A DNA stretch of 64,000 nt from Candidatus Omnitrophota bacterium (GTDB lineage: Bacteria; Omnitrophota; Gorgyraeia; Gygaellales; Profunditerraquicolaceae), in NCBI GenBank assembly GCA_022710715.1, contig JAKLGJ010000002.1, positions 17,590 through 81,589 of the forward strand. The letters run 5' to 3'. The position numbers were made by a program, and so were the translations under genes. Shown here in pieces: positions 382 through 38,169 of this stretch (position 1 is the first letter of the stretch; every line of letters starts with the position of its first letter). The notes below the pieces were generated by a model. It was not told the DNA's origin and did not search any database. It was given only the letters and a program-made list of their open reading frames with translations.

Positions 382-771
382 TTAGGGTAAGTTTTTTCGA
401 GATGCCTGGAAGGCGGCCCAGCGGTCAGCGCGTTGCCTGGACTGGGCTTGATAGAGAATGTTGCGCAGAACAAGAGGAATGGGATTACACAGGCCGCGAG
501 GCATCTGGATTCCGGCTCTAAACTGATTCTCTCCCATACGGTTGATCCAGACGACCTGCCCCTGCAAGGGAACATGCTCCTGGTTATCCGGCATCTGTAA
601 CTGCATGTGGACCTGCCGGCCCAGAGACAACTGCTCGCGGGTAAGCACGCCAACGCCATTGGCGCTGATATTTTTCAGCCGTAAACCCGCCATGCCCGGA
701 ATATCTATGGGCATATCCATCTCGTAGCGGGGAAATTTCCTTTTTTCCTGAAAAGATGTAGGTTCTTGCAT
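382..771 (-). CDS. PilZ domain protein (c-di-GMP receptor).
   Basis: The 129 aa ORF carries RKFPRYEM and NISANGVGV motifs, matching the RxxxR and D/NxSxxG PilZ signature. It lies 30 nt upstream of the co-directional REC gene. Confidence 0.7.
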   Translation of the reverse strand: MQEPTSFQEKRKFPRYEMDMPIDIPGMAGLRLKNISANGVGVLTREQLSLGRQVHMQLQMPDNQEHVPLQGQVVWINRMGENQFRAGIQMPRGLCNPIPLVLRNILYQAQSRQRADRWAAFQASRKNLP

Positions 772-970: not shown

Positions 971-3082
971 TTATTTTAAGAAAGTGTTACCGATGATAAA
1001 AGCCGCGAACACGATGGAAACCATGGACATCAGCTTGATCAGGATGTTCAAAGAAGGTCCCGAAGTATCTTTGAAGGGATCGCCCACGGTATCGCCGACC
1101 ACAGCAGCTTTATGCGCCGGGGAGCCTTTGCCGCCGTGATGGCCTTCTTCGATAAATTTCTTGGCATTGTCCCAGGCGCCGCCGGAATTCGCCATCATCA
1201 CCGCCAATACGAATCCGGTTACCAGAGAGCCGCAGAGCAAACCGCCCACCCCTTCCACGCCGATAAAAATCCCGACGACAATCGGAGCGATCACTGCCAA
1301 TAACGCCGGCAGGACCATTTCTTTCTGCGCGGCCGCAGTCGCGATAGTCACCACGCTGGCATAATCCGGCTTGGCCTTGCCTTCCATCAAACCCACGATC
1401 TCCTTGAACTGCCGGCGCACTTCTACCACGATCTTGCCGGCTGCGCGGCCCACTGCGCGCATGGTCATGGAACAGAACAAGAACGGCAGCATGCCGCCGA
1501 TGAACAACCCGATCAACACCTGTGGGTTCATCAGGCTCATCTCGATAAGCTTGTCGGACTTGATCAGGATCTCGTCGCGATACGCCGCGATCAAAGCCAG
1601 AGCAGTCAATGCCGCGGAACCGATGGCAAACCCTTTGCCGGTAGCGGCAGTGGTATTACCCAGAGAATCCAGAGCGTCGGTGCGCTTGCGCACTTCCGGA
1701 GGCAGATGCGACATTTCGGCGTTTCCGCCGGCATTATCCGCTACCGGACCGTAAGCGTCGGTAGCCAGGGTAATACCCAGAGTGGAAAGCATGCCTACTG
1801 CGGAAATTGCGATACCGTAAAGCCCGGAGTTGAAATTCGCGGCTCCGCCGGATACGAAAAAGCTGATCATAATAGACGCGCAAACGATGATCACCGGCCA
1901 GGCAGTAGACATCATCCCTACAGCCAGACCGGAAATGATCACGGTAGCCGGACCGGTAACCGCCGAATCCGCGATGGTCTGCGTGGGCTTAAAACCGCTG
2001 GAAGTATAATATTCGGTGATCAATCCAATCAATACGCCGGCAACCAGGCCGGAGATCACCGCCCAGTACACGCCCATATGTTCCGCTCCCAGGGTATGTT
2101 TGATCAGAAAATAGGAAGCGATGGCGACAATGAATGAGCTGGTGAAAACGCCTTTACGCAAAGCCGCCAGCAATACCGACTGGCTGGCGTCTTCTTTACT
2201 CTGCACGAAGAAGGTGCCGACCACGGAAGCCAACACGCCGATTGCCGCCATAACCATAGGTACGGTAACTCCGGCAACGCCCAACCCGGCAGCCACGCCC
2301 AGAGCCGACGTAGCCACGATCGAACCGCAATAGGACTCGTACAGATCAGCGCCCATGCCGGCAACGTCGCCGACGTTATCGCCGACGTTATCGGCAATAA
2401 CCGCGGGGTTGCGGGGATCGTCTTCGGGAATACCCGCTTCCACTTTACCTACCAGATCCGCGCCGACATCCGCGGCTTTGGTGAAAATTCCGCCGCCCAC
2501 GCGGGCGAACAACGCCTGCGAGCTGGCGCCCATGCCGAAACAAAGCATGGTCGAAGTGATCGCGGCAATCTTGTCCATATTCGCCGGGATCGCGGCAGGA
2601 TGCGCGCCGTAATACCAGTTAAGGAAATAATACCAGACACTCAAATCCAGCAGGCCTAAACCGACCACGGTCAACCCCATAACCGCGCCGCTGGAAAAAG
2701 CCACGCGCAAGCCGGAATTCAGGGATTTCATGGCTGCGGCGGCAGTGCGGTTGGACGCTTGCGTGGCAATGGTCATGCCGATAAAACCGGAGAGGCCGGA
2801 GAAGAAACCGCCGGTCAGAAAAGCGAAGGGTACGAAAATCACCAGATAACCTTTCCAGGCCAGGGCCAGCAGAATACAGAACACCGCGGCAAAGAAAATC
2901 GACACACCCAGGTACTGTCTCTTTAAATACGCCTGGGCGCCGACGCGTACCGCCGCAGCGATCTCTTTCATCCGGTCAGTCCCCTGATCCTGTTTCAGGA
3001 CGGACATGGCCAGGTAGAAAGCGAATCCCAAAGCGAAGATCGAGCCTACCGGGGCCAGAATCAGAAAATCGAAACTTCCCAT
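971..3082 (-). CDS. hppA: K+/Na+-stimulated membrane-bound pyrophosphatase (V-type H+/Na+-translocating PPase).
   Basis: 703 aa polytopic membrane protein with the conserved [16 protein letters not shown] motif and [16 protein letters not shown] strong RBS AAGGAGGAGAAAG precedes the ATG at 3082. Confidence 0.9.
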
Positions 3083-24354: not shown

Positions 24355-25242
24355 ATGGAAAAAAACGAAAATCCTGCGCAGCATTACGCACGGATCCGCA
24401 CTGTCCTGCTGGTTATACTTGGCCTGAACTGGGCAGTAGCCCTGGCCAAGATAGTCTTCGGCCTGGTGACTCGAAGCAGCAGTATGACCGCCGACGGATT
24501 CCACTCCCTTGCCGATGGAGCCTCCAATATCCTGGGTTTGATCGGTATTCATCTGGCGGCTCAACCCAAAGATAAAGACCATCCCTACGGCCACAAGAAG
24601 TATGAAACCCTTTTTGCGCTGACCATCGCAGCTTTGTTGTTTTTTGTCAGCTACAACCTGATTCAGGCAAGCATCGGGCGTTTCCGTCACCCGGTCATCC
24701 CGGAAGTTACCCTGATGAGCTTTATCATTATGCTCGGCACCATGGGGGTGAACTGGCTGGTGATGCACTATGAATATTCCGCGGGGAAACGAATGCGCAG
24801 CGATATTCTGGTCTCCGATTCTTTGCATACGAAAGCCGACCTGCTTACGTCTTTTTCCGTACTGGTCTCCCTGGTAGTGATCAAACTGGGATTCCCGATC
24901 ATCGACCCGATTATCTCCCTGTTGATCTCTTTATTTATCGCTTACGCCGGATGGGATATCTTCAAACACAGTTCCAGCGTCCTGTGCGACACCGCCGCCA
25001 TCCTTGATGAGAAAGCCATCACTGATATCGTGCTGCGTGTGGACGGGGTTCTTTCCTGCCATAACATCCGCAGCCGGGGCAGAGAAGACGATATCTATAT
25101 CGACCTGCATGTTCTGGTCGATCCGAGAATGCAGATGGATCAGGCCCACCGGATAAGCGACGCTATCGAAGAGGCGCTGCAGAAAGGGATCGCCGGAGTC
25201 AGCGACGTGGTGGTGCATATGGAGCCTAAAGAGCAGCGGTAA
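24355..25242 (+). CDS. Cation diffusion facilitator (CDF) family metal efflux transporter.
   Basis: 295 aa. Six TM helices with HSLADG and HTKADLLTS metal-binding motifs, plus a C-terminal cytoplasmic domain. It is one of only two plus-strand protein genes. Confidence 0.85.
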   Translation: MEKNENPAQHYARIRTVLLVILGLNWAVALAKIVFGLVTRSSSMTADGFHSLADGASNILGLIGIHLAAQPKDKDHPYGHKKYETLFALTIAALLFFVSYNLIQASIGRFRHPVIPEVTLMSFIIMLGTMGVNWLVMHYEYSAGKRMRSDILVSDSLHTKADLLTSFSVLVSLVVIKLGFPIIDPIISLLISLFIAYAGWDIFKHSSSVLCDTAAILDEKAITDIVLRVDGVLSCHNIRSRGREDDIYIDLHVLVDPRMQMDQAHRISDAIEEALQKGIAGVSDVVVHMEPKEQR

Positions 25243-26821
25243 CCCGCCTTGACCGCACGCGTGCAATTATCCCGCCCAGCCCGATCAACGCCAGACAGAA
25301 CGCCGGAAAAACATCCCCGTAACGGGAATAGAAACTCATCTCGCCCTGCGTCAGAACGATCTCTCTGGAGCGCGTCCCCTGCACAAAAATCTGCCGGCCG
25401 TCCTTGTCTTGTACCAGAGAAGCGGTTCTTCCGCGGGAGTCGATGAATCCGGATATGCCGGTATTGGCGGCGCGAATGACGCAAACGCGGTTCTCCACCG
25501 CCCGGAACACCGACGCCTGCAGATGCTGGAATGAAGCGGCGGTGCGCTGATACCAGGCATCATTGGTGATATTCACCAGGAACTGCGCGCCTTTACGCAC
25601 GAACGCGCGGGCACTATCGGGAAATACGTCTTCAAAACAGATCAGCACGCCGAAACGGGCAACCCGGCGTTGCGTATCCCGCCGCAAGGGCAACTCAAAG
25701 ATCGTATAGTCTGTCCCTCTGCTGACTTCGCCGATCGGCACGATGGTTTCCAGGAACGGCAGGACCCGGCGCAAAGGGATATATTCCCCGAACGGGACCA
25801 GATGCACCTTGTGATATTCCTGAAAAAGCCTGTCCGGGGAACGCAGCAAAATCGCGCTGTTATAATACTGCGGGTCCTGAAAAGTAACTGCGCCCAGCAA
25901 TAAGCCGGCGTCGGTGGTTTTCAGGAATTCGGCAATGCGCGCGGCATATGCCGGCTCTTCCTCGAGGATCACCGGCAACGCAGCTTCCGGCCAGGCCACG
26001 AGATCGGGGGCGTCCGACAACGACTCGGCAGAAAGACGCAGATACGTATCCATAATGTAGGTCCGGGCCTGCTCCTGCCACTTCAACTCCTGGGGGATGT
26101 TGCCCTGTACTACGGCTACGCGTATCCGCGGCGCGTCCGCTGCCGCAGGCACGGGACGCAGTTTCCAGAAACCATATCCCAGAACGCCCGCCCACACACA
26201 AACCATCATCGCGATCAGACCGCGCGTAGTTTTGTGCGGCAGACCGGTCCCGGGACCACCGGGTTTCAATCGCGTCAACGCTTCCTGCAGGCAGATATTG
26301 GTCCACATGACCAGGAAAGAAACGCCCCAGGCGCCGGTGATATCCGCGAACTGAATCACGGCCGGGTTCCGATACTGGCTATAGCCGACCAGCGCCCAGC
26401 CGAATCCGGTGAACAACCAGTTACGCAGGTACTCCAGCGCCACCCAGACTGCCGGGACAAAAAGCAACCTGAACGCCCCCAGGCGGCGAGTCCAGGGACG
26501 CGATGCCGCCAGGCCGAATACCGCGAAATATAAAGCCAGGTACGCGCACAGAACAAGCGTGCCCGGGCCGGTAACGTGCACCAGCCAGTAGATGCTCGCC
26601 AGCCAGTAGACCACGCCGCAACAATAGGCCAGTGCGAATGCCCGCGCCGGACGTCGTCCTTCCAGCGCCCGCAAGAGCGGAATAAAAGCGAACCAGACCA
26701 ACCATGCCAGATTCCATCCGGGAAAAGAAAGCGTCAGCAGACACGCCGACCCGACGCTCCAGGTGAAGGGCGAGCGGAGGAAACGCTCAACGACAGAATA
26801 CGTTCTTATTGTCCGCAGCAT
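25226..26821 (-). CDS. lnt: Apolipoprotein N-acyltransferase.
   Basis: 531 aa with N-terminal polytopic TM helices and a C-terminal nitrilase-like CN hydrolase domain ([14 protein letters not shown]...ICFEDVFP...). Confidence 0.85.
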
Positions 26822-29748
26822 TTTTTGTATTTCTTGCCCGAACCGCAGGGGCAGGGATCGTTGCGGCCGACTTTCGGCTGCTGATTTTTCACTGCAGAAG
26901 CGGCTGGCTGCTGGGAGGGGGCCGCAGGCGCCTGCGCCGCAGCAGGCGCAGGGGCGTCAAATGTTTTGGTTTCAGGATGGACGAACGTCTGGGAGCGGGA
27001 GCTGAAAACCTGCTTGACCCGTTCAGGCCGCGACGGCTGCAGCCGCAAGAGCATTTCCACCGCTTCCTCTTCGATGCTTTCGATCATCTGGCTGAAATAA
27101 TTGAACGCTTCGTTTTTATATTCTATCAGCGGATCGCGATGGCCGTACGCGCGCAGACCGATCCCTTCACGCAACTTATCCATGGCGTAGAGATGGTCCT
27201 TCCATTTGGTGTCGATAACCTGCAGGAAAACCATGTACTCAATGGACCGCATCTGGTCTGCTCCGATGGTCTTTTCTTTCGCCTCGTAGTCGGCGACAAC
27301 CCGCTGGTAAAGGGCTTCGCATACAGACGTCTTATCTTTGCCGGCCAGGAACGCTTCGTCCGCGGCGATGCCGAAACGGACATGTACCGACTGCAGACAC
27401 TCCGACACCTGTTCGGGCGCAAGCTGCCCGGCGTTCTCTTTGTAATACGCGCCGATAGTATCCTCGACCTTGCGCTCCATGATCGAGGTAATACTTTCTT
27501 TCAAGGACACCCCTTCGAGGATATCCCGACGCTGGCGATAAATGATCTCCCGCTGTTTATTCATCACGTTATCGTATTCCAAAAGCTGCTTTCTGATCTC
27601 GAAATTATGATGCTCCACCCGGCTCTGGGCGGTTTCGATGGATTTGGAAACCATCCGGGCCAGATGCCCTTCCTTGGCGGTGATCGGTTCGCCGCCGGTA
27701 TCCACTGATTCAAGCATGCGCAGCATCCAATCCGGAGCGAACAATCGCATCAGGTCGTCTTCGAACGAAACATAAAAACGGGAAACGCCGGGGTCCCCCT
27801 GGCGGGCGCAGCGGCCGCGCAGCTGGTTGTCGATGCGCCGGGCTTCGTGACGCTCGGTACCCATGACATACAGCCCGCCTGCAGCAACCACTTTATCATG
27901 CTCCAGGGCGGTTTCTTTGCGGTAAGACTCGAGCATCTTCCTGAATTCATCGGCGTACTGCGAGTCGGCGGGATCGAATTTTTGTCTGACCAGGGCCCTG
28001 GCCATATATTCCGGATTGCCCCCGAGCAGAATATCCGTCCCGCGGCCGGCCATATTGGTGGCAATGGTCACGCCCTTGAACCGTCCGGCCTGGGCCACGA
28101 TCTGCGCTTCCATTTCGTGATATTTGGCATTGAGCACCTGATGCGGGATGCCGCGGCGCTTGAGCAATTCCGCGAGCAGTTCCGATTTTTCGATAGAGAT
28201 AGTCCCCACCAGCACCGGCTGCCCGCGCTGATGACACGCTTCGATCTCGGCGACCGCAGCCTGGAATTTTTCCTTCTCGGTCTTATAGACGCTGTCGGGA
28301 TTATTCACCCTGACCAGCGGCCGGTTGGTAGGCATGCTCACCACATCCAGCTTATAGATGGCCTTGAATTCATTGGCTTCGGTATACGCGGTCCCGGTCA
28401 TACCCGCCAGCTTCTCGTACATGCGGAAATAATTCTGGAAAGTGATCGTCGCCAGAGTCTGGTTCTCCTGCTCTATCTTCATGCCTTCCTTGGCTTCTAC
28501 CGCCTGATGCAGGCCATCCGACCAGCGCCGGCCGGGCATGAGCCTGCCGGTGAATTCATCGACGATGATCACCTGACCGTCTTTAACGATATACTCGCGG
28601 TCGAGTTTGAAAAACTCTTTGGCCCGCAGGGCCTGCTGGGTGTGATGTTTGAGCTCCATCGTCTCCAGGCTGTGCAGCTCGGCGACCCCCCAGGCGCGGG
28701 CAGCCTTGACTTCGCCTTCTTCGGTCAGAGCTATGGTATGGGCTTTCTCATCCGCGACATAATCGAATCCCCGGGACAGATCCTCGCCCCGGTGTTTGGC
28801 GTCGATCTCGTCGTTCTCGGTGATCCGCCTGCCACGCAGCCCGTCTGCAATGCGCTTGGCGGCATAATATTTATCGGTTGATTCCTCGGACGCGCCGGAG
28901 ATGATCAAAGGGGTGCGCGCTTCGTCGATCAGGATAGAATCGACTTCGTCGACGATGGCGTAGAAAAATTCTCGCTGCACCAGATCGTCCAGGGAATATT
29001 TCATATTGTCGCGCAGGTAATCGAAGCCGAATTCGTTATTGGTGCCGTAGGTGATATCGCAGCCGTAGGCGATTTTTCGCTGGTCGTCGGAAAGCTCGTG
29101 CTGAATGACCCCGACCGTCAGGCCGAGGAACTGATAGATCGGCCCCATCCATTCGCTGTCGCGGCGGGCGAGGTAATCATTGACCGTAACGATGTGCACG
29201 CCCTTGCCGTAGAGGGCATTGAGGTATGCGGGCAAGGTCGCCACCAGGGTTTTGCCTTCACCGGTCGCCATCTCCGCGATCCTGCCTTCGTGCAGAACGA
29301 TCCCGCCGGCGATCTGCACGTCGAAATGCCGCAAGCCTATGGTGCGCCGCGACGCCTCCCTGACCACGGCAAAAGCCTCGGGCAGGATGTCGGCAAAAAT
29401 GGTATTGCGCAGGAGTTTGATACGCTCCTTGACCTTATCTTTCTCTTCCTGGATGGTGATGGAGAACAGCGTTTCCTGCAGATCGCGGATAGCCGGATCG
29501 ATCGAACGGACTTTCTCGGCGATATGCGCCCGGAAGACGTCGCTCTTGGCGCGCAGCTGCTCGTCGGAGAGGGCGGCTATTGCCGGCTCCAGTCGATTCA
29601 CCTCATGCACGCGTTTCGCCAGACCGGGCATACTGCCGATCGCGGACATCGGCATTTCTTTGTTCAAATTCATGTTCACGCCCGGATACAGGCGTTTGAT
29701 CGTCTTCTGCTTGCTGGCCAGCACCGAACGTTTAATAAATCCCATCAT
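26806..29748 (-). CDS. secA: Preprotein translocase ATPase SecA.
   Basis: 980 aa with DEAD-like motor motifs ([42 protein letters not shown]) and a C-terminal zinc finger [14 protein letters not shown]. Confidence 0.9.
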
Positions 29749-30849
29749 AGTTTACCTGCCCGGAACTTTAAAAACGCTTCAATAAATTCGTCGAGTTTGC
29801 CGTCCAGGACCGCAGCGGAATTGCCGGTCTCATGGTCGGTACGATGGTCCTTGACCAGGTTATAGGGATGCAGGACGTACGAACGGATCTGGCTGCCCCA
29901 TTCTATCTTCTTCTTCTCGGCGCTGTGTTTTTGCAGCTCCTGTTCCTTCTTCTCCTGCTCCAGCTCATACAAACGCGCTTTGAGTATCTTGAGCGCCGTT
30001 TGTTTATTCTGATGCTGCGACCGCTCATTCTGGCATTGCGCCACGATGCCCGTGGGTTTATGCACGATCCTGACCGCGGTATCGGATTTCTGCATATGCT
30101 GTCCGCCGGCCCCGGAAGCGCGGAATGTCTCTATCGCCAGATCTTTTTCATCGATCGTCACGGCGATTTCTTCGCCCAGGTCCGGGATCACATCCACGGA
30201 CGCAAATGACGTGTGGCGCCGTTTATTCGCATCAAAGGGAGAGATGCGCACCAGACGATGCACCCCGCGTTCGGCCTTGAGATACCCGAACGCGTAAGCG
30301 CCTTCGATCAAAAGAGTCGCATTCTTTGTGCCGGCTTCTTCGCCGGGAAGAATATCCAGGGTCTTGACGCTGTAACCCTTATCTTCCGCCCAGCGCATAT
30401 ACATCCGCAGCAGCATGCTCGCCCAATCGCAGGATTCGGTCCCGCCGGCGCCGGAATTGATGCTCAAGATAGCGCTGCTGGGATCGGCCTCGCCGCTCAA
30501 TAATGTCTTGAATTCCAGCTGCTCCGTTTCTTTCTGCAAAGCCAGGAGATTCGTATCCAGCTCGGCGACCAATCCGGTATCGCTATCGGCAGAGATATCC
30601 GCGAGCTCTTTAAGCTCGGCGAATTTCTTAGCCGCGAGTTCCCAGGGTTCTACCGATGCTTTGAGGGATTTTAACTGTTTGACGACGGCGGTCGACTGCT
30701 GTTCATCGTTCCAGAAATCCTGCCGGGACATATCCGAGGATAAATCGTCGATACGCTTCTTCTTGGCATCAATGTCAAAGATACCCTCGAAGATTGCGAA
30801 TCTGGGTTTCAAGCGCATCAAGCCTGGCTTTAATATCATTGAGCATCAT
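29745..30849 (-). CDS. prfB: Peptide chain release factor 2, expressed via the programmed +1 frameshift.
   Basis: The GGQ motif SGAGGQHMQ and SPF are in the long frame. The true N-terminus [24 protein letters not shown] is in the -1 frame and ends at CTT TGA C (30780..30774, minus strand). An SD-like GAGGG sits upstream, the canonical RF2 autoregulatory frameshift site. Confidence 0.85.
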
Positions 30850-30872
30850 CTATCCTCCATGGTGGCAGCCGT

Positions 30873-31946
30873 TTATTTCTTGATCCCTTTCAAAGCCAGG
30901 ATGAATTCGTCTTTATTGTCGGAGAAATCCATGGCTTCCGCCTCGGTGATCTTGCCGTCCTTGACCAGCTTGACCAAAGACTGATTGAAGGAATGCATGC
31001 CGAAGATGTCGCCTTCTTCCAGATACCGGGTGATCTCTCCGACTTTGTTCTCGCGGATGAGACGACTGATCGTGGGCGTCAAAAGCATGACTTCGCTCGA
31101 AGGGATACGGGTCACGCCGTCCTTGAGCGGAATCAACCGCAGCGAGATGACCCCCTTGAGCAGAAAAGAAAGCTGGGTGCAGATCTGCGGATGCTGGTGC
31201 GGCGGGAAGAAATTGACGATGCGCTCGACCGTCTGCGGGGCATTGACCGTATGCAGCGTACTCATCACCAGGACGCCCGTTTCGGCAGCGGTCAGAGCAG
31301 CGGACATGGTCTCCTCATCGCGGATATTGCCGATATAAATGACATCCGGACTTTGCAGGGTAAACGAGCGCAGCGCGACCGGATAGGAAGCCACGTCCTT
31401 GCCCAGCTCGCGTTGATTGATCAGGGAATTTTTGTCGTTAAAAGTGAATTCAATGGGTTCTTCAAGCGTGAAAATATGCTTGTACGCGTTTTGATTGATG
31501 TATTCGATCATGCTGGCGATGGCGGTGGATTTACCCGACCCCATGGTCCCGGTCAACAACACCAGACCGCGGCGTTCCATGGCCAGCTTCTTCAGGATCT
31601 CCGCGGGCAGGTTCAAATCTTCCAGCGTCTTGGTCGCCGGCGGAATATTCCTGGCTACGATGGACGGCCAGTTGCGTTGCATGAAAATGCTGATGCGGAA
31701 ACGCCGGTCCAGCTGCGGGCAGTAATAGGCGAAATCGATATCAAATGTTTTACGAAAGAATTCCCGGACCTCTTCCGACAGGAGCTTTTGCAGGGACCGG
31801 TCGATATCGTCTATGCCGATAACCGCATCCGTAACCTGGGTCACTTTGCCGTTAATGCGCATACGGACCGTGGCGCCGGCGCGATAGAACAGATCCGACC
31901 CGTCTTTTTCCACCAGCATACGCAAACATTCGATTATGTCTATCAT
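30873..31946 (-). CDS. pilT: Type IV pilus twitching-motility ATPase PilT/PilU.
   Basis: 357 aa with Walker A GTMGSGKST, Asp box and His box (LVMSTLHT), and a PilT-type N-terminus. Confidence 0.85.
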   Translation of the reverse strand: MIDIIECLRMLVEKDGSDLFYRAGATVRMRINGKVTQVTDAVIGIDDIDRSLQKLLSEEVREFFRKTFDIDFAYYCPQLDRRFRISIFMQRNWPSIVARNIPPATKTLEDLNLPAEILKKLAMERRGLVLLTGTMGSGKSTAIASMIEYINQNAYKHIFTLEEPIEFTFNDKNSLINQRELGKDVASYPVALRSFTLQSPDVIYIGNIRDEETMSAALTAAETGVLVMSTLHTVNAPQTVERIVNFFPPHQHPQICTQLSFLLKGVISLRLIPLKDGVTRIPSSEVMLLTPTISRLIRENKVGEITRYLEEGDIFGMHSFNQSLVKLVKDGKITEAEAMDFSDNKDEFILALKGIKK

Positions 31947-31982
31947 GCGTCCCTCGTTAGTTAATAAGTGGTTTGAAGAGTA

Positions 31983-33473
31983 TTATACCACTGTCCTTCT
32001 TTTTTCCGTAGCAGAAAATTCCATGTATTTGGCCAGCATCAGCCGCGTCTGGGCGTCCAGAGCCGGCGTCGACCCCAGGATCAGTATCAAAAACGGCACA
32101 AATAACCACTCTACGACCATCACGATATTGGTGATCCAGTGCACTTCTTTGGGCCGCGGCGGCAGAATCGCGCGGCTTAAGAGTATCCAGACAATACTCG
32201 TGCCGAGGGTAAAATTAAGCAGCACGCCGATAACGCGGGGCAGATTCTGGCTGATCGGAGTCTGGGCAAAAAACACGCCCCCCACCAGAAGCGGCAGCGA
32301 CGGCATCACTCCCATGATGATCGCCCAGAGTGCCCAGGTAACATGGCTTTCCAGCAGATGGAAAGACCGGCGGATCTTAAGCACCAGCGGAATTTCATGG
32401 TCGCGCAAAAGCCGCGATACGACGAACGGAAAATTCTCCACCCCCCAGGCCCAGCGTCGCTTCTGCTTATACTGCACCTCCAGGGTCTTGAAGAGATTTT
32501 TCCCGTAAGCCACATCCATGGAAACGGTGGTATAGAGAGGAATAACCCGGTAATCGCCCTTATAGTACAGAAATGCTTTCCAGTAGACCACCGAATCGTC
32601 GGAAATCATATCCACCGGCCAGTAATCGATATCCACCAGGGTTTTGAAACTCATGCTGTGGCTGGAGAAGGTGACAAATTTCTCCAGACGCAAACTCTCG
32701 ATCATCTGGCAGAAAGAAGCGCTGATCTCGATAATCCTGGCCAGAGAGGGCGCCTGCCAGATATTATTGTTATACACCGGCACCGGTTGATAACTGGCTT
32801 GATGGGGTTTGGGATTGGTCAGGAAATGGTACGCCAGGCAACCGAAATATTCCCGGTCGATACAGGTGTCCGCGTCAAAACAGGAAACAATGACTTCTGC
32901 CAGCGGAATCTTTTTTTGTTCCAGCAGATCCTTCGCCTTCCTGGCTGCCCAGGTCGCGTTTGCCCCTTTCAGACGCTTTTCTCCCGGCAGTTGATCCGGA
33001 TGGAACGTGGTCAGATAAGCGCCGAACGTGCCGCCGAATTCCGCCTCGAGGATTTTGGCATACTCCCCGGCAGGCGCGTGACGTCGCTCGAAAGCCATCA
33101 CCACGATAATCCGGCTCTTGGGATAATGACAGGTTTTCAACGCCTCCAGAGAAGGCCGCAGAATATCCAGGCCTTCCTTATAGACTGGAAAGATGACCAG
33201 ATGATACAGGTCTTCCCATTTGCGTTTGGGCAGCGACCGGCAGGCGGCGAGCCAGTCTTTGCTGCGTTCCCGGGATAAACGGCGGTGCGCCAATACCAGC
33301 AGCGTGGTCAGGTAGACGGTGCGGATGATCCAGTAGAAATCGAAAATAATAATGATCACTGCGGCGATCACCGGACGCCAGACGGTCATCACCACCAGAA
33401 AGATGATAATCCCCCAGGAAATACTGCCCGGGAGGATCTCCAGAAATCGCTTAGTTCTTTTCCCTGCGCTCAT
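31983..33473 (-). CDS. Membrane-embedded processive family-2 glycosyltransferase (cellulose/chitin/hyaluronan synthase-like).
   Basis: 496 aa with N- and C-terminal TM bundles. It carries a DxD (CFDADT) and QYKQKRRWAWG, which is the Q(Q/R)xRW processive synthase motif. Confidence 0.7.
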   Translation of the reverse strand: MSAGKRTKRFLEILPGSISWGIIIFLVVMTVWRPVIAAVIIIIFDFYWIIRTVYLTTLLVLAHRRLSRERSKDWLAACRSLPKRKWEDLYHLVIFPVYKEGLDILRPSLEALKTCHYPKSRIIVVMAFERRHAPAGEYAKILEAEFGGTFGAYLTTFHPDQLPGEKRLKGANATWAARKAKDLLEQKKIPLAEVIVSCFDADTCIDREYFGCLAYHFLTNPKPHQASYQPVPVYNNNIWQAPSLARIIEISASFCQMIESLRLEKFVTFSSHSMSFKTLVDIDYWPVDMISDDSVVYWKAFLYYKGDYRVIPLYTTVSMDVAYGKNLFKTLEVQYKQKRRWAWGVENFPFVVSRLLRDHEIPLVLKIRRSFHLLESHVTWALWAIIMGVMPSLPLLVGGVFFAQTPISQNLPRVIGVLLNFTLGTSIVWILLSRAILPPRPKEVHWITNIVMVVEWLFVPFLILILGSTPALDAQTRLMLAKYMEFSATEKRRTVV

Positions 33474-34404
33474 TTGGTTTTAAACGGATAAAGTCGGAAA
33501 ACGGATACAGCCGGTTATGCAATTCGATCTTATACAGGTTATCATACATCTTGCCGTCGACCGCTTCCTGGGCGTCGATAAAAAACAGCGTGTCCGTCCG
33601 CACATCGTACGACCCGGTGGCGTTCTTCTTATTCAAAGAAATCAGGCTCACCGGGATAGCGTCCTGCCTGGCTTCGGTAATCATTACCTTCTTATCGGTC
33701 AGCATCACCAGATGATAACTGTCCGAATACCAGAACACTTCGTTGATGGTATCATAGGGGAATTGCACGGTGAACATCCGCTCCCGTACCGCCGGATGCT
33801 CCTCGGCCCCGAGATAAACGAGCCCGATCTCATGGGCGTTAAAAAACAATAACTTGTCCCGGTCAGGCGACAGCTCCCAGCGTTTGGGCGGCGGGATCAA
33901 CGGAGGGAAACTGGCCGCTTCCTTGAAATGATCGCCCTCGAGATCCGAGGTATAAATCGTCTTGCTTTCTTTATCGATATAATAAACCGTGGCTTTGATT
34001 TCATCGATCCAGAAAGCGGAGATCTTTTCTTTGTTGAGTTTCTGGATATCCGGCCGCAGGGGGAAAAGAATGACCTTTTCCAGACGCACCACCTTTCCGG
34101 GCTCCACGCGCACTTCGGCAAAATAGGAATAGTGCCCTTCCAGTTCCAGGTCGATCTGATACGTCCCCGGAATAAGCTCGTTGAGCATTACCGGCGTCTT
34201 GTCTTTTACCAGCAGCTTGTTCAGGAATACGCTCGCCCCGCCGGGCACCGTTTTGATCATGATCAACCCTCCCCGGGTAAACTTGAGGGTGCGGGGGTCG
34301 AATTTATACCCGAGCGAAAAAGCCAGGATAAAAGGCAATCCCAGAAAAAAAATCGCCAGGCTCATATAAAACAACACCGTGCGTATACTCTGTTCTCGTG
34401 TCAT
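33451..34404 (-). CDS. Membrane-anchored PEGA-domain protein.
   Basis: N-terminal TM helix. The PEGA-like beta-sandwich motif IKTVPGGASVFLNKLLVKDKTPVMLNELIPGTYQIDLELEGH follows. It overlaps the GT2 start by 23 nt and the uvrC-like stop by 4 nt. Confidence 0.45.
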   Translation of the reverse strand: MTREQSIRTVLFYMSLAIFFLGLPFILAFSLGYKFDPRTLKFTRGGLIMIKTVPGGASVFLNKLLVKDKTPVMLNELIPGTYQIDLELEGHYSYFAEVRVEPGKVVRLEKVILFPLRPDIQKLNKEKISAFWIDEIKATVYYIDKESKTIYTSDLEGDHFKEAASFPPLIPPPKRWELSPDRDKLLFFNAHEIGLVYLGAEEHPAVRERMFTVQFPYDTINEVFWYSDSYHLVMLTDKKVMITEARQDAIPVSLISLNKKNATGSYDVRTDTLFFIDAQEAVDGKMYDNLYKIELHNRLYPFSDFIRLKPNERREKN

Positions 34405-35645
34405 CGTTCCAACAGTTTCTTATGCCGCAACAGATGGTGGTACCGCCGGGCAAACCGGTGCGCTTCATCGCGGACGCGGCGGATAAGATTCAACGCCGGG
34501 GTGTCCGCGTCCAGACGCAGCGGCGCGGCGTGTCCGGCCACATAGATATTCTCTTCTTCCTTGGCGATGCTGATCACCGGGATGCTGACCTGCAGCTTGC
34601 GTATCTCGTCAAGGGCCGCTTCAAGATGCTGTTTGCCGCCGTCGATGAGCACCAGATCCGGCAACTGCTTGCGCTCGGAGACCAGACGCGCATAGCGACG
34701 GCTGACCACTTCCCGTATCATAGCATAATCATCGCTTCCCTGCACGGTCTTAATCCGGAACCGGCGATAATTGCCCTTGTCCGGAAAGCCGCGGTAGAAC
34801 CGGACCATCGCCCCCGTAGCTTCCTGGCCCGCGAGCGTAGCGATATCGAAGCCTTCTATGCGCAGGGGCTTGCGCTTCAGCCCGACCAGTATACGCAGGT
34901 CTTCGCTCTCGTCCGGGCTGACAAAATGCTTCCGGTAATTGCCGATCGCGCTTAAAGCCAGCATCTGATCGCGCAGCAGAGCCGCGTCTTCATACCGTTT
35001 TTCCACGGCCGCCTGCTTCATGTCGGAGGTCAACCGGGCAAGAAGCTCCTCGTATCGGGAATCCAGGAACAATCCGATATCTTCGATGCGTTGCCGGTAC
35101 TGCGACGCGGTAATCTTGCCCGCGCAGGGGCCGGGACAAAGCTTGAGCCGGTAATACAGACATGGCTTCTTCGGCAGCGCCGCGCAGGTGCGGAAACCAA
35201 AAATTTTGCGGATAACCTGCAGCGCCTGACGCAAAAGTCTGGCGTTGGTGTAGGGGCCGAAATACCGGCAGCGCTGCGGATCCTGCCGGCGGTCTTTGCT
35301 GCGGCATATCGACACCATCGGGAAGCGCTCGTCGGTGATCCGAATAAGCGGGAACGATTTGTCGTCTTTGAGGCTGATATTGTAGTGCGGCTGTTTCTCT
35401 TTGATCAGCGACGCTTCCAGGAGCTGCGCCTGCGCTTCGGAGGGCGAAAGAATGAATTCTATGTCGGCAATCCGCGCGACCAGCGCCCGGGTCTTGGCTG
35501 CGAGCTCCCGGGTGAAATACGACTGCACGCGTTTCTTGAGATTCTTGGCCTTGCCGATATAAATGATCCGTCCCCGGGCGTCTTTATACAGATAGACTCC
35601 CGGTCCCTGCGGCAGTTCATCGACTTTCTTCTTCAGCGCTTCCAT
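34401..35645 (-). CDS. uvrC: UvrC-like excinuclease (GIY-YIG + UVR + RNase H-like endonuclease domains) lacking the C-terminal (HhH)2 domain.
   Basis: From the ATG at 35645: GVYLYKDARGRIIYIGKAKNLKKRV (GIY-YIG), EDAALLRDQMLAL (UVR) and RIEGFDIATL...DDYAMIREVVSRRY...LIDGGKQHL (endonuclease). It ends right after RDEAHRFARRYH. At 414 aa it is well short of the roughly 600 aa canonical UvrC. Confidence 0.7.
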   Translation of the reverse strand: MEALKKKVDELPQGPGVYLYKDARGRIIYIGKAKNLKKRVQSYFTRELAAKTRALVARIADIEFILSPSEAQAQLLEASLIKEKQPHYNISLKDDKSFPLIRITDERFPMVSICRSKDRRQDPQRCRYFGPYTNARLLRQALQVIRKIFGFRTCAALPKKPCLYYRLKLCPGPCAGKITASQYRQRIEDIGLFLDSRYEELLARLTSDMKQAAVEKRYEDAALLRDQMLALSAIGNYRKHFVSPDESEDLRILVGLKRKPLRIEGFDIATLAGQEATGAMVRFYRGFPDKGNYRRFRIKTVQGSDDYAMIREVVSRRYARLVSERKQLPDLVLIDGGKQHLEAALDEIRKLQVSIPVISIAKEEENIYVAGHAAPLRLDADTPALNLIRRVRDEAHRFARRYHHLLRHKKLLER

Positions 35646-37207
35646 AAGATACCCTGCAGATAGTTCACCTTCAGCAAGGCGCACATCGCGAAATACGCAA
35701 GCATCCCGCCGGCGATCGGCAGAAGAAGATTGACCGCGCGCGCCAGCAGCGGCACGCCCGACCCCAGGGGATAGCCGGAGATAATAAAGCACACCTCGCC
35801 CATAACCACGCTGGCCAGGAACACTCTCACGCAAAAATCGATCAATCCCCGCAGTCCCAGACCGCCGAGTTTCTTCCGCAATATAACCAGCAAAATCAGG
35901 AATCCGCTGATCCCGGAAATCGACGTCGCCAGAGCCAGACCGTTGAGTTTCAAAGAAAACATCAGCGCGGCATTCAACGCGCAATTCAAAACAAGGCTGA
36001 TCGCGGAGACTTTTGTCGGGGTCACGGTATCCTTGAGAGCAAAATACCCGCACTGCAGGATTTTCGTCGCCCCGTAGGCGAACAATCCGATGCTGTAAAA
36101 GAACAAGGCGCCGGAAGTTATCTGCGCGGAATAGGCGTTGAACCGGCCTCCGCCGAACAACGCGCTCACCATGGGCCTGGACAATACCATGAAAGCGACC
36201 GACGCCGGGATCATCACGAAGAAAACGCCCCGCAACCCGAAAAGCAGCGTATCTTTCAGTTTGACGTAATCATTCTGCGCGGCCTGGCAGGAAAGCGCGG
36301 GCAATAATGCCTGGGAAAGCGAATTGCCGAATATGCCCAGGGGGAACTGGATCAAACGATAGGAAAAATATAACGCAGCCACGCCTCCCTCCCCGACAAT
36401 GAAAGCCAGCGAGCCGAAGATGGAATCCACAAAATTATTCAGCTGGTAGATCGCCGAACTCAACAACCGGGGGGTCATCAGTTTGCCGATCTTGCGTATC
36501 GCGGGATGCCGGAAATTGCCGTTCAGGCTGAATCTGAACCCTTTTCTGTGCAACAGCGGGATCTGTACCGCGAGCTGAAGCGCGCCGCCGACCAGTACCC
36601 CGGAAGCCAGGCCCCTGATCCCTTCCCCCCAGATCAACGCAAAGACGATGATCGAAATATTGAGCAGGCAGGGAGCGAAAGCAGGGATAGTGAAATGCCG
36701 CAGTGAATTCAATATCCCCATGGCATAAGCGGTCAGACCGATCAAAAGGATATAGGGAAAGATCAGCCGGTTGAGCGTTACCGTAGCGGCAAACTTTTCG
36801 GGATCCGCGGTAAAACCCGGCGCGATCAACCGGATCAAAACAGGAGAGAAAATCACGCCCAGAACGGTAATGCCCGCCAGAACGACCAGAAGCAGGTTCA
36901 TCAACACATTAGCCGCTTCCCAGAACTCCTTCTTCCTGTCTTGCGCCAGGTATTCGCCTAATACCGGAACGATCGCGGCATTGGTCGCGCCCTCCCCCAC
37001 CAGATCACGGAAAAGATTGGGGATCTTGAAAGCGATGACAAAGGCCTGGGAATACACATATACCCCGAACAAGCGGGCGATGATGATATCCCGGATAAAG
37101 CCCAGAATGCGCGATAAAAACGTAGCCAGACCGATAATACCGGCAGATCGGGTAAGCCCTTTCCGGGAGTCGTGTGAGCGATATTTATCTATTGACATTG
37201 GCTCCAA
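35633..37207 (-). CDS. murJ: Lipid II flippase MurJ (MviN).
   Basis: 524 aa, 14-TM MOP superfamily protein with a typical MurJ N-terminus (ATFLSRILGFIRDIIIARLFG). Confidence 0.85.
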   Translation of the reverse strand: MEPMSIDKYRSHDSRKGLTRSAGIIGLATFLSRILGFIRDIIIARLFGVYVYSQAFVIAFKIPNLFRDLVGEGATNAAIVPVLGEYLAQDRKKEFWEAANVLMNLLLVVLAGITVLGVIFSPVLIRLIAPGFTADPEKFAATVTLNRLIFPYILLIGLTAYAMGILNSLRHFTIPAFAPCLLNISIIVFALIWGEGIRGLASGVLVGGALQLAVQIPLLHRKGFRFSLNGNFRHPAIRKIGKLMTPRLLSSAIYQLNNFVDSIFGSLAFIVGEGGVAALYFSYRLIQFPLGIFGNSLSQALLPALSCQAAQNDYVKLKDTLLFGLRGVFFVMIPASVAFMVLSRPMVSALFGGGRFNAYSAQITSGALFFYSIGLFAYGATKILQCGYFALKDTVTPTKVSAISLVLNCALNAALMFSLKLNGLALATSISGISGFLILLVILRKKLGGLGLRGLIDFCVRVFLASVVMGEVCFIISGYPLGSGVPLLARAVNLLLPIAGGMLAYFAMCALLKVNYLQGILWKR

Positions 37208-37269
37208 AGTATGTTATTTTTTTATATGTTATGAAATTGTTCCATTCCAATCTATAAGGAGAATTTTAT

Positions 37270-37533
37270 ATGGCTAATCGTCGTGCTGCCGTAAAGAGCT
37301 TACGGGTTGACAAAAAAAGACATGCGCGGAATATGCGCATAAAGAACGAGCTCAAGAAAACCATCAAGAATTTCCAGGCCCTGGTGGCAGAAAAGAAGTC
37401 GGAAGAAGCCAGAAAAGTCCTGCTGAAAGTCTCTTCCCTGCTGGATAAAGCCGCGAAAAAGAACGTTATTCACGCCAATACTGCCAGCCGCAGGAAATCC
37501 CGGCTATCCCGGAAAGTTCTTAAAGCTGCATAA
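37270..37533 (+). CDS. rpsT: 30S ribosomal protein S20.
   Basis: 87 aa: MANRRAAVKSLRVDKKRHARNMRIKNELKKTIK...NVIHANTASRRKSRLSRKV. AAGGAGA RBS at 37256-37262. Confidence 0.9.
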   Translation: MANRRAAVKSLRVDKKRHARNMRIKNELKKTIKNFQALVAEKKSEEARKVLLKVSSLLDKAAKKNVIHANTASRRKSRLSRKVLKAA

Positions 37534-38169
37534 ACTCACAATCAGTTTTTCCAGCGCAAAAGATGGACGCATGACTCCTGTTTTAATGCCTTGATCGCAT
37601 TCGAGCAGGAGTCTGCTTATTTTTTTCAGTTGGCGGATGTCGTTGAACTGGCGTTCCAGCCGGACACGCAAGCCGCCCAGGATAAGTTCCGGTTTTTCGC
37701 CTTTTTTCAGCAGGGAATTGAGAATCGTGAGGCTGGCAGCCACCTTACCGGCTTCGATCTGGCGGCTCAAGTCGAACACCGTCTGGGGTTTTTCTTCCTG
37801 GAATCGAACAACGCGCGCTCCGGCTACCTGCCGTATAAAAACATCCTGCCCTTCCGATGAGCGGAAATCCAGCACCAGCACTACCTGGCCGGAGGGTTTC
37901 CGGCTGTAAGCGAGCACAAACTCCTTCGCTTCCTGTTTCAGCGCCTGCGCATCTTTAACCACGACGATCCGCTTACTGGACTGGACGGGCAAAAAGAGCA
38001 GTTTCTCCTGCAATTCCTTGAGACTGGTTTCTTTCCCGAACACTACATCCAGATTGAATTCTGCGGTCCGGCGCGAGAGGAGGTCTTTCTTGATCGTATC
38101 CAGTGCGGCATCTTTGGCGGGACAATCCTGGCCAATAAAAAGGCATATCGAACTATCGTTTCTTACCAT
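37504..38169 (-). CDS. holA: DNA polymerase III delta subunit-like (HolA), short form.
   Basis: 221 aa with N-terminal ICLFIGQD...KRIVVVKDAQ resembling the HolA clamp-loader delta. It sits directly downstream of lptE as in the enterobacterial leuS-lptE-holA arrangement. The 3' end overlaps rpsT convergently by 30 nt, so it is short for HolA. Confidence 0.45.
   Translation of the reverse strand: MVRNDSSICLFIGQDCPAKDAALDTIKKDLLSRRTAEFNLDVVFGKETSLKELQEKLLFLPVQSSKRIVVVKDAQALKQEAKEFVLAYSRKPSGQVVLVLDFRSSEGQDVFIRQVAGARVVRFQEEKPQTVFDLSRQIEAGKVAASLTILNSLLKKGEKPELILGGLRVRLERQFNDIRQLKKISRLLLECDQGIKTGVMRPSFALEKLIVSLCSFKNFPG

Follow-up and report, generated by a model that had tools for sequence, protein, structure and literature searches.

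A PEGA-domain protein and a PilZ-less family 2 glycosyltransferase as a putative polysaccharide synthase module next to a short-form uvrC gene in Omnitrophota

The window analyzed here, 64,000 nucleotides (nt) of a Candidatus Omnitrophota genome (contig JAKLGJ010000002.1, positions 17,590 to 81,589; coordinates below are those of the window), contains three overlapping genes on the minus strand that encode, from upstream to downstream, a UvrC-like nuclease, a membrane-anchored PEGA-domain protein and a membrane-bound glycosyltransferase of family 2 (GT2). In the original prediction, these genes were taken for a translationally coupled operon in which a truncated nuclease is functionally paired with an exopolysaccharide synthase. 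Comparison of gene neighborhoods across related genomes indicates instead that the real unit is the two-gene PEGA-GT2 module and that uvrC is merely a neighbor with an unrelated function. We consider it likely that the module is a self-contained system for synthase-dependent polysaccharide production, with the GT2 most likely being a processive glycan synthase that lacks a PilZ domain and is served by a new kind of periplasmic partner.

All three genes were found where the original prediction had placed them. The short-form uvrC-like gene (34401-35645) encodes a 414-amino acid (aa) protein with GIY-YIG, UVR and RNase H endonuclease domains and lies outside the module; the gene for the PEGA-domain partner (33451-34404; 317 aa) is defined by a match to Pfam PF08308 and by a structure model; and the GT2 gene (31983-33473; 496 aa) is defined by its open reading frame (ORF), fold and profile matches. 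As read in the sequence, the uvrC/PEGA junction is a 4-nt overlap, ATGA, and the end of the PEGA gene overlaps the start of the GT2 gene by 23 nt (33451-33473). The GT2 is 100% identical to a protein from Candidatus Omnitrophota that NCBI names GT2.

To place these genes in context, we assembled 83 related loci, namely, 3 contigs that encode close GT2 homologs and 80 loci from a scan of a one-genome-per-species collection, in which a 13-sequence alignment was used as the query and at least 582 species were found to encode a GT2 relative. The window proteins were scored against all ORFs of these loci and the neighbors were clustered; some of the neighbors were scanned against Pfam or NCBIfam. 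The PEGA gene is located directly upstream of the GT2 gene in 55 of the 83 loci, that is, in every locus outside the Patescibacteria-type group discussed below. The two genes are nearly always tightly packed: the median distance in the 52 loci where both are intact is -8 nt with the longest starts and -4 nt with the shortest plausible starts, and the distance is 30 nt or less in 44 of 47 related loci. The flanking genes vary and include rlmN with ribonucleotide reductase, a Mur ligase with mnmE, pirin, a transglutaminase-like protein, CorA, a BON-domain protein, DUF2490 with a trehalose-synthase-like glycosyltransferase, and a CHASE2-GGDEF cyclase; the pair is also present in loci labeled Ca. 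Manganitrophus and Nitrospirae. The view of the GT2 and PEGA genes as an uncharacterized polysaccharide-synthase pair is thus borne out by their conserved adjacency in varied surroundings, and the pair is phylum-wide in Omnitrophota.

The same comparison does not extend to uvrC, which adjoins the pair in only 16 of the 83 loci. These 16 loci belong to one clade and have in common a whole 13-gene housekeeping block, bamD-lptE-holA-rpsT-murJ-uvrC-(ogt)-PEGA-GT2-pilT-prfB-secA-lnt; uvrC, murJ, pilT, prfB and secA flank the pair only in the 16 to 17 loci that share this block (pilT in 17). In three close relatives with GT2 proteins 65-66% identical to that of the window (L005, L007 and L017), the pair resides among quite different genes. 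Moreover, in 13 of the block-sharing loci, uvrC and the PEGA gene are separated by a gene for a 92-aa stand-alone Ogt/MGMT C-terminal domain (for example, L001:6783-7061). This gene is missing in the window (junction at 34401/34404) and in loci L013, L015, L024 and L052, with the result that uvrC directly adjoins the PEGA gene; the window has lost the ogt gene that is seen in most of its relatives. The possibility that the 92-aa protein is an alkyltransferase-like (ATL) damage sensor was considered and rejected given that the active-site Cys of the PCHRV motif is intact; the protein is a minimal Ogt.

Could the three genes nevertheless constitute one functional unit, with the truncated UvrC-like nuclease recruited to work with, or to regulate, the synthase module? 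All three genes overlap, the uvrC...PEGA-GT2 order recurs in the 16 loci, and the absence of two domains in this UvrC could hint at a changed function. However, the adjacency is limited to one clade along with the rest of the housekeeping block, ogt intervenes in most of these loci, one locus (L006) retains murJ-ogt-PEGA-GT2-pilT but not uvrC, the pair occurs without uvrC in about 38 further loci, and UvrC itself passes the threshold for a genuine family member with both nuclease active sites and the UvrB-binding motif intact. The joint unit therefore appears hardly tenable: uvrC is not syntenic with the pair in most loci, and the pairing of a nuclease with a synthase did not survive the neighborhood comparison.

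The overlaps themselves are real, but they carry little weight as a sign of shared function. With the longest ORF starts, approximately 31 of the 55 same-strand neighbor pairs in the window overlap and 44 of the 55 are no more than 40 nt apart; the window is almost wholly co-directional and densely packed, and pairs of unrelated genes overlap as well (secA/prfB by 4 nt, lptE/bamD by 4 nt and lnt/secA by 16 nt). The chain also continues upstream of the three genes, given that the start of uvrC is overlapped by the end of murJ by 13 nt, so that uvrC belongs to a co-directional run, murJ-uvrC-PEGA-GT2-pilT-prfB-secA-lnt, in which every gap is 36 nt or less. A similar case is found in E. coli, where 4 nt are shared by uvrC and the unrelated uvrY, a regulator gene, and pgsA comes after uvrC. 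With overlapping junctions so common in this genome, translational coupling is weak evidence of a functional link. The location of uvrC is accounted for by its membership in a long, compact, co-directional string of housekeeping genes, and the nuclease-with-synthase arrangement is ordinary gene packing. With regard to the gene start, the mechanically called uvrC ORF reaches a GTG at 36053 and would overlap murJ by 420 nt (35633-36053, minus strand); judging from the homologs, the ATG at 35645 is the correct start and yields the 13-nt overlap.

The UvrC-like protein scores 414.6 bits against TIGR00194 (NCBIfam, excinuclease ABC subunit C), above the curated equivalog cut-off of 285.45. The GIY-YIG domain responsible for the 3' incision (PF01541, E = 3e-9, residues 16-89) aligns with the solved N-terminal domains 1yd6 and 1ycz; four Cys residues between positions 150 and 178 align with E. 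coli UvrC; the UvrB-binding UVR motif (PF02151) spans residues 199-233; and the C-terminal RNase H endonuclease domain, which is responsible for the 5' incision and contains a DDH triad, is readily recognized (PF08459, E = 5e-49), with the IEGFDIA, LIDGG and DEAHRFA motifs aligning with 2nrt and 3c65 and the D/D/H positions matching those of Thermotoga maritima UvrC. The alignment with E. coli UvrC covers E. coli residues 18-255 and 394-551. The central region (E. coli residues ~256-393, about 138 residues) is missing, with residue 253 of the query joined to 262, and the protein ends at about the end of the RNase H domain in 2nrt, that is, near residue 551 of the 610 in E. coli UvrC. Accordingly, no helix-hairpin-helix (HhH) domain was detected by Pfam and the (HhH)2 tail (E. 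coli ~552-610) is absent, as originally proposed, and the central domain is absent in addition. In its equivalog score, GIY-YIG and RNase H endonuclease domains, four Cys and UVR motif, this protein agrees with UvrC proper, of which two other parts, the (HhH)2 tail and the RNase H1-like central domain, are absent here. The similarity to Cho is weak (77 vs 367 bits), and unlike Cho, this UvrC retains the C-terminal endonuclease.

Among its relatives, the shortened UvrC is no exception. All 120 best homologs are of the same short type (394-431 aa, with two at 478 and 492), none contains an HhH domain, and NCBI and JGI name them UvrC. Given that the short form is found in all 120 of these proteins, it is the normal, lineage-wide form of UvrC in these Omnitrophota and neither a decayed remnant nor a recruited or odd paralog. 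The missing central region has been described as an RNase H1-like platform by Seck et al. (PMC10085695), and the Deinococcus radiodurans UvrC without (HhH)2 keeps the 3' incision and, in part, the 5' incision activity (PMC10085695), which makes a working short enzyme plausible. We found no description in the literature of a UvrC in which the (HhH)2 tail and the RNase H1-like central domain are both missing; such a minimal natural UvrC bears on the question of which domains nucleotide excision repair really needs.

The GT2 belongs to a family that is barely covered by the current domain libraries. The only matches are weak: PF13632 at 25.8 bits, with a gathering score of 27, and PgaC_IcaA (TIGR03937) at 26.2 bits, compared to a cut-off of 422.3. 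In a scan of 1.84 billion representative proteins, 1782 relatives were detected at E <= 0.001, of which 325 reached E <= 1e-30, mostly with end-to-end alignments, suggesting that the family is compact and distinct. The level of conservation of the GT2 is that of SecA, PrfB and PilT: across 15 syntenic loci, the median identity to the window proteins is 67% for the GT2, 67% for PrfB, 65% for PilT, 64% for SecA, 60% for MurJ, 52% for UvrC and 46% for the PEGA protein.

The characteristic motifs of membrane-bound synthases are strongly conserved when counted across 57 family members. In the DxD motif D200-A-D202 (32868-32876, minus strand), which aligns with DCD of E. coli BcsA, both Asp residues are invariant in 57 of 57; in the catalytic-base motif (E/D)D, D292-D293 (32595-32600, minus strand), which is matched by TED of BcsA in the alignment, an invariant D293 is preceded by E or D in all 57 sequences; and in the QxxRW motif, Q337-K-R-R-W341 (32451-32465, minus strand), as already recognized in the original prediction, Q337 and R340 are invariant and W341 is present in 54 of 57, with the motif located on a predicted interface helix (327-357). 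E129, which is also aligned with a BcsA motif, is invariant or nearly so. Finally, close to the C-terminus, residues F486-S-A-T-E-K491 (32001-32018, minus strand) resemble the gating loop of cellulose synthases: the family consensus is (F/Y)xVTxK (F/Y in 57, V in 41, T/S in 52 and K in 57 members), E. coli BcsA has FNVTAK at residue 617, and PgaC has RWVSPDRG at the equivalent place. The FxVTxK gating loop of BcsA and of the plant cellulose synthase CesA8 contacts uridine diphosphate (UDP) and is needed for activity, the V505A substitution brings the activity of BcsA down to about 20%, and hyaluronan and chitin synthases have WGTR/KG in place of FxVTxK (PMC10592267).

The AlphaFold2 model of the GT2 (pLDDT 94.7, pTM 0.92) consists of two long N-terminal helices, a GT-A domain, the QxxRW interface helix, C-terminal membrane helices and a short tail. 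The top matches in a Foldseek search of PDB with this model were the E. coli and Rhodobacter BcsA and the hyaluronan synthases of a Chlorella virus and Xenopus. The single GT2 sequence yielded no match when compared with solved structures, and only the family profile reached BcsA: its best match among these structures is E. coli BcsA (E = 8e-4), in an alignment that spans PTYxE, HxxK(A/G)xN (HAKAGN in BcsA), DxD, TFSSxS (FFCGS), EDS (TED) and QxxRW. By fold and profiles, the GT2 accordingly falls in the processive class that includes cellulose, poly-N-acetylglucosamine (PNAG) and hyaluronan synthases, in line with the cellulose/chitin/hyaluronan synthase class named in the original prediction. 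Given the breadth of the GT2 family and the presence of the non-processive archaeal membrane mannosyltransferase PcManGT among the structural matches (ranks 6 and 13), one might suppose that the enzyme is non-processive, with a product such as a glycolipid or a polyprenyl-phosphate sugar, and that the PEGA protein is an unrelated fellow traveler in the envelope. We regard this as very unlikely: the family conserves QxxRW, the gating motif and the (E/D)D base, a combination that marks channel-forming processive synthases, the structure aligns over its full length with BcsA and hyaluronan synthases, and the close coupling with the partner, whatever the context, speaks for a common function.

The identity of the polymer is a finer question. 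The overall architecture of the GT2 is PgaC-like, with two N-terminal and about three C-terminal transmembrane helices in roughly 500 aa, and the alignment with PgaC runs from end to end (hhalign probability of 96.4 over 345 columns); the protein ends just after the last interface helix, the sole NCBIfam match is PgaC_IcaA, and hyaluronan synthases are among the best structural matches. These features would fit the same two-gene module making a polymer with N-acetylglucosamine (PNAG-, chitin- or hyaluronan-like) instead of a glucan. However, the PgaC_IcaA score is a small fraction of the cut-off, the gating-type motif (F/Y)xVTxK is neither WGTR/KG nor the PgaC sequence, and HxxK(G/A)xN, TFSS and EDS align with the BcsA motifs in the catalytic core, where the hhalign probability for BcsA is 97.4. 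Besides, no gene for a PgaD/IcaD-like protein, a deacetylase or a PgaA-like porin was found in the window or in the recurrent neighbor clusters, among which only some neighbors were scanned and singletons were not annotated. An N-acetylglucosamine polymer thus seems improbable. In short, the GT2 combines a PgaC-like architecture with BcsA-like motifs and is cut off right after the gating motif, and the product is possibly a beta-glucan, to judge from these motifs.

The partner protein is, as originally described, a membrane-anchored PEGA protein. The PEGA domain (residues 47-110; 34075-34266, minus strand) is recognized with confidence (PF08308, E = 1.2e-11, 44.8 bits vs the gathering score of 20.8), and in the model (pLDDT 86.7), a transmembrane helix (residues 3-30) is followed by a beta-sandwich (33-112), which corresponds to the PEGA domain, and then by some sixteen strands (130-294). 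For the latter region, Foldseek returned only generic WD40/YWTD propellers (TM-score 0.27-0.38), and the model suggests a propeller or a propeller fragment with about four blades; no sequence match to any solved structure was found for the partner. Conservation is highest in the transmembrane and juxtamembrane segments and the PEGA domain, with column identity of 0.71-0.75 in the transmembrane and juxtamembrane part, including the conserved anchor at residues 9-30 (34315-34380, minus strand), compared to 0.56 in the propeller; across the wider family alignment, P24 and G32 are invariant and the propeller contains no invariant catalytic-looking residues. Such a distribution is consistent with an anchor packed against a second protein of the membrane. 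In a sister clade, the partner is about 490 aa long, with some 170 extra residues in the propeller region, and there the GT2 gene is often followed by a gene for a weakly recognized glycoside hydrolase-like TIM barrel: the product, which is secreted and roughly 360 aa long (L043:7325-8392, L046:3379-4494 and another four to five loci), shows weak matches to glycoside hydrolase families GH42, GH10 and GH35 and is reminiscent of the glycoside hydrolases encoded in synthase operons.

Taken together, these features suggest the following mechanism. The GT2, residing in the inner membrane, would use its nucleotide-sugar substrate in an active site of the BcsA type (D, DxD, ED and QxxRW), with the C-terminal (F/Y)xVTxK tail putatively serving as the gating loop, and would polymerize the glycan processively while pushing the chain through its own transmembrane channel; UDP-glucose as the donor and a beta-glucan as the product are favored by the BcsA-type motifs. 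The partner would be held beside the GT2 by its conserved transmembrane helix, possibly in a physical complex, such that the PEGA sandwich and the propeller could receive or guide the emerging chain in the periplasm, a role that would be BcsB-like although the protein is unrelated to BcsB.

The GT2 contains neither a PilZ domain nor any other added domain detectable with Pfam or NCBIfam, in agreement with the original prediction, and the model ends at residue 496, just past the gating motif. Given the lack of PilZ, the enzyme is probably independent of cyclic di-GMP (c-di-GMP); control by c-di-GMP via the known PilZ route is excluded, and the activity is probably constitutive or otherwise controlled. 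A small PilZ-like ORF with an RxxxR...NISxxG pattern is indeed present at 382-771 (minus strand), as noticed originally, but it has only a weak match to TIGR02266, lies 31 kb away, and no link between it and the synthase was found. In one locus (L019:2309-3994, plus strand), a CHASE2-GGDEF diguanylate cyclase is encoded directly upstream of the PEGA-GT2 pair, a single hint of a c-di-GMP connection despite the lack of PilZ.

Several observations weigh against this mechanism. The structural matches of the GT2 are modest, with TM-scores of 0.45-0.54 at 11-14% identity, sequence similarity leaves BcsA and PgaC unseparated as the closest relatives, and the gating motif of the window protein has Ala where the family and BcsA have Val. 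The C-terminal tail is placed in the cytoplasm only by the positive-inside rule, and the hydrophobicity of helix 447-466 would suffice for a genuine membrane-spanning segment, in which case the tail would be outside the cell. The partner was considered as a homolog of BcsB and of OpgG, and both candidates were rejected (hhalign probabilities of 0.3, against E. coli BcsB, and 0.1, respectively). Furthermore, no outer-membrane exporter gene was found beside the pair in any context examined, and the Patescibacteria GT2 manages without a partner, so that a direct role of the partner in synthesis is only suggested by synteny.

The lack of an outer-membrane exporter encoded with the pair makes a periplasmic or wall-associated housekeeping polymer a serious alternative to an exported polysaccharide. 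Under this possibility, the product would be an envelope component retained in the periplasm or the wall, similar to osmoregulated periplasmic glucans or a wall polysaccharide, and the PEGA/propeller protein would retain or process it. Such a role is compatible with the housekeeping-level conservation and wide spread of the GT2, and, as in E. coli opgG-opgH, the gene for the periplasmic protein precedes that for the GT2. Homology to that system was considered on account of this order and rejected (hhalign probability of 7.8 for OpgH), and the envelope genes among the neighbors may just reflect housekeeping strings. The alternative differs from the preferred explanation only in the destination of the polymer, and we consider it possible, if clearly the less probable of the two.

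The genomes in which the GT2 gene occurs without the PEGA gene also bear on this issue. The 28 such loci nearly all carry labels of Patescibacteria lineages, and the partner-less GT2 gene is found there alone, next to a gene for a WecA-like family 4 glycosyltransferase (GT4), with murG-ftsW, or with genes for a small membrane protein and an SLT-like protein; the latter neighborhoods would suit a wall-associated product. In detail, in L032, L033, L038, L045, L047, L049, L063 and others, the GT2 gene is often followed by the WecA-like GT4 gene and preceded by two genes, one for an approximately 125-aa membrane protein and the other for an SLT-like protein with coiled coils, and in L050 it follows ftsW-murG. 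Patescibacteria are generally held to be monoderm, whereas the window encodes the outer-membrane assembly proteins BamD and LptE, and the presence of the partner thus seems to track with a diderm envelope, as a correlation.

These distributions invite a broader, tentative proposal that we rate as somewhat unlikely, namely, that the GT2 is a housekeeping enzyme of ultra-small bacteria, acting together with the partner in the diderm Omnitrophota and by itself in the monoderm Patescibacteria. The enzyme would then be a minimal, c-di-GMP-independent, cellulose-synthase-like machine for a core envelope or attachment glucan, an undescribed polymer common to two large uncultivated groups, with the partner representing a new class of periplasmic co-subunits. 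We found no description of this synthase or of the PEGA-GT2 pair in the literature, and no curated family covers the enzyme. If the preferred explanation is correct, the mostly ultra-small members of the uncultivated phylum Omnitrophota carry a synthase conserved at the level of SecA and Patescibacteria carry its partner-less version; this would be the smallest cellulose-synthase-type enzyme with an FxVTxK gating motif and, being PilZ-free, a clean model for the function of the gating loop without c-di-GMP control, and the partner would represent a periplasmic subunit of a new type. For these lineages, the polymer could matter in envelope integrity or in attachment to host cells.

The first gene of the co-directional run is murJ (35633-37207, minus strand; lipid II flippase; PF03023, E = 5e-118, and TIGR01695 above the cut-off), and a pilT-family ATPase gene (30873-31946, minus strand; TIGR01420, 377 bits vs the cut-off of 319) starts 36 nt downstream of the GT2 gene. 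BamD and LptE, named from their relatives, are also encoded in the window. The prfB gene contains a classical programmed +1 frameshift site, CTT TGA C (30774-30846, minus strand), with a frame-0 leader, which gives the 364-aa ORF listed from 30839 a false N-terminus. In consensus scans of the 25-37.7 kb region, promoter-like sites did not exceed their frequency in shuffled sequences, and all minus-strand terminator-like sites are inside genes; terminator-like hairpins are about 2-fold more frequent at 25000-37700 than in shuffled sequences (28 vs 13.8 +/- 4.1), with those on the coding strand being intragenic. At 971-3082 (minus strand), a 703-aa membrane protein is encoded that, by sequence, resembles a proton- or sodium-pumping pyrophosphatase.

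Among the characterized synthase systems, BcsA-BcsB gives the best matches by both structure and profile. Both synthases have the membrane processive GT2 fold, PTYxE, H..K..N, DxD, FFCGS-like, TED-like and QxxRW motifs match one to one, an FxVTxK-type motif follows the last interface helix in both, and in both cases a neighboring gene encodes a single-pass membrane protein, the bulk of which is periplasmic. The differences are also substantial: BcsA is 872 aa long compared to 496 aa for the GT2, with 11-14% identity, and the GT2 has no counterpart of the c-di-GMP-binding PilZ domain or of the final two transmembrane helices of BcsA; the PEGA protein is not BcsB and has an N-terminal anchor and an upstream gene; and no bcsC, bcsZ, bcsQ, bcsE or bcsG is adjacent to the pair.

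Class I hyaluronan synthases (Chlorella virus and Xenopus HAS1) resemble the GT2 as stand-alone synthase-translocases of about 500 aa with the same order of helices, but they have a WGTR/KG loop and a GDD/EDR-type base (PMC10592267), function without a partner and show no sequence-level match to the GT2. PgaC-PgaD and IcaA-IcaD share with the module the size class, the order of helices and the GT domain, a small two-gene inner-membrane core and the only NCBIfam match. They differ in that the GT2 reaches only 26 of the 422 bits required and ends in (F/Y)xVTxK rather than RWVSPDRG, and in that PgaD/IcaD is a small two-helix protein, in contrast to the 317-aa periplasmic PEGA/propeller partner. 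A further parallel is offered by GlxA of Streptomyces, which contains a beta-propeller; GlxA is a copper radical oxidase, whereas the PEGA partner has no catalytic-looking invariants in its propeller and does have a PEGA domain. The layout of the two systems is nevertheless alike: CslA, a PilZ-less cellulose-synthase-like GT2, is described as encoded beside GlxA, a membrane-anchored extracytoplasmic protein with which it forms a complex (bioRxiv 10.1101/2023.11.20.567928).

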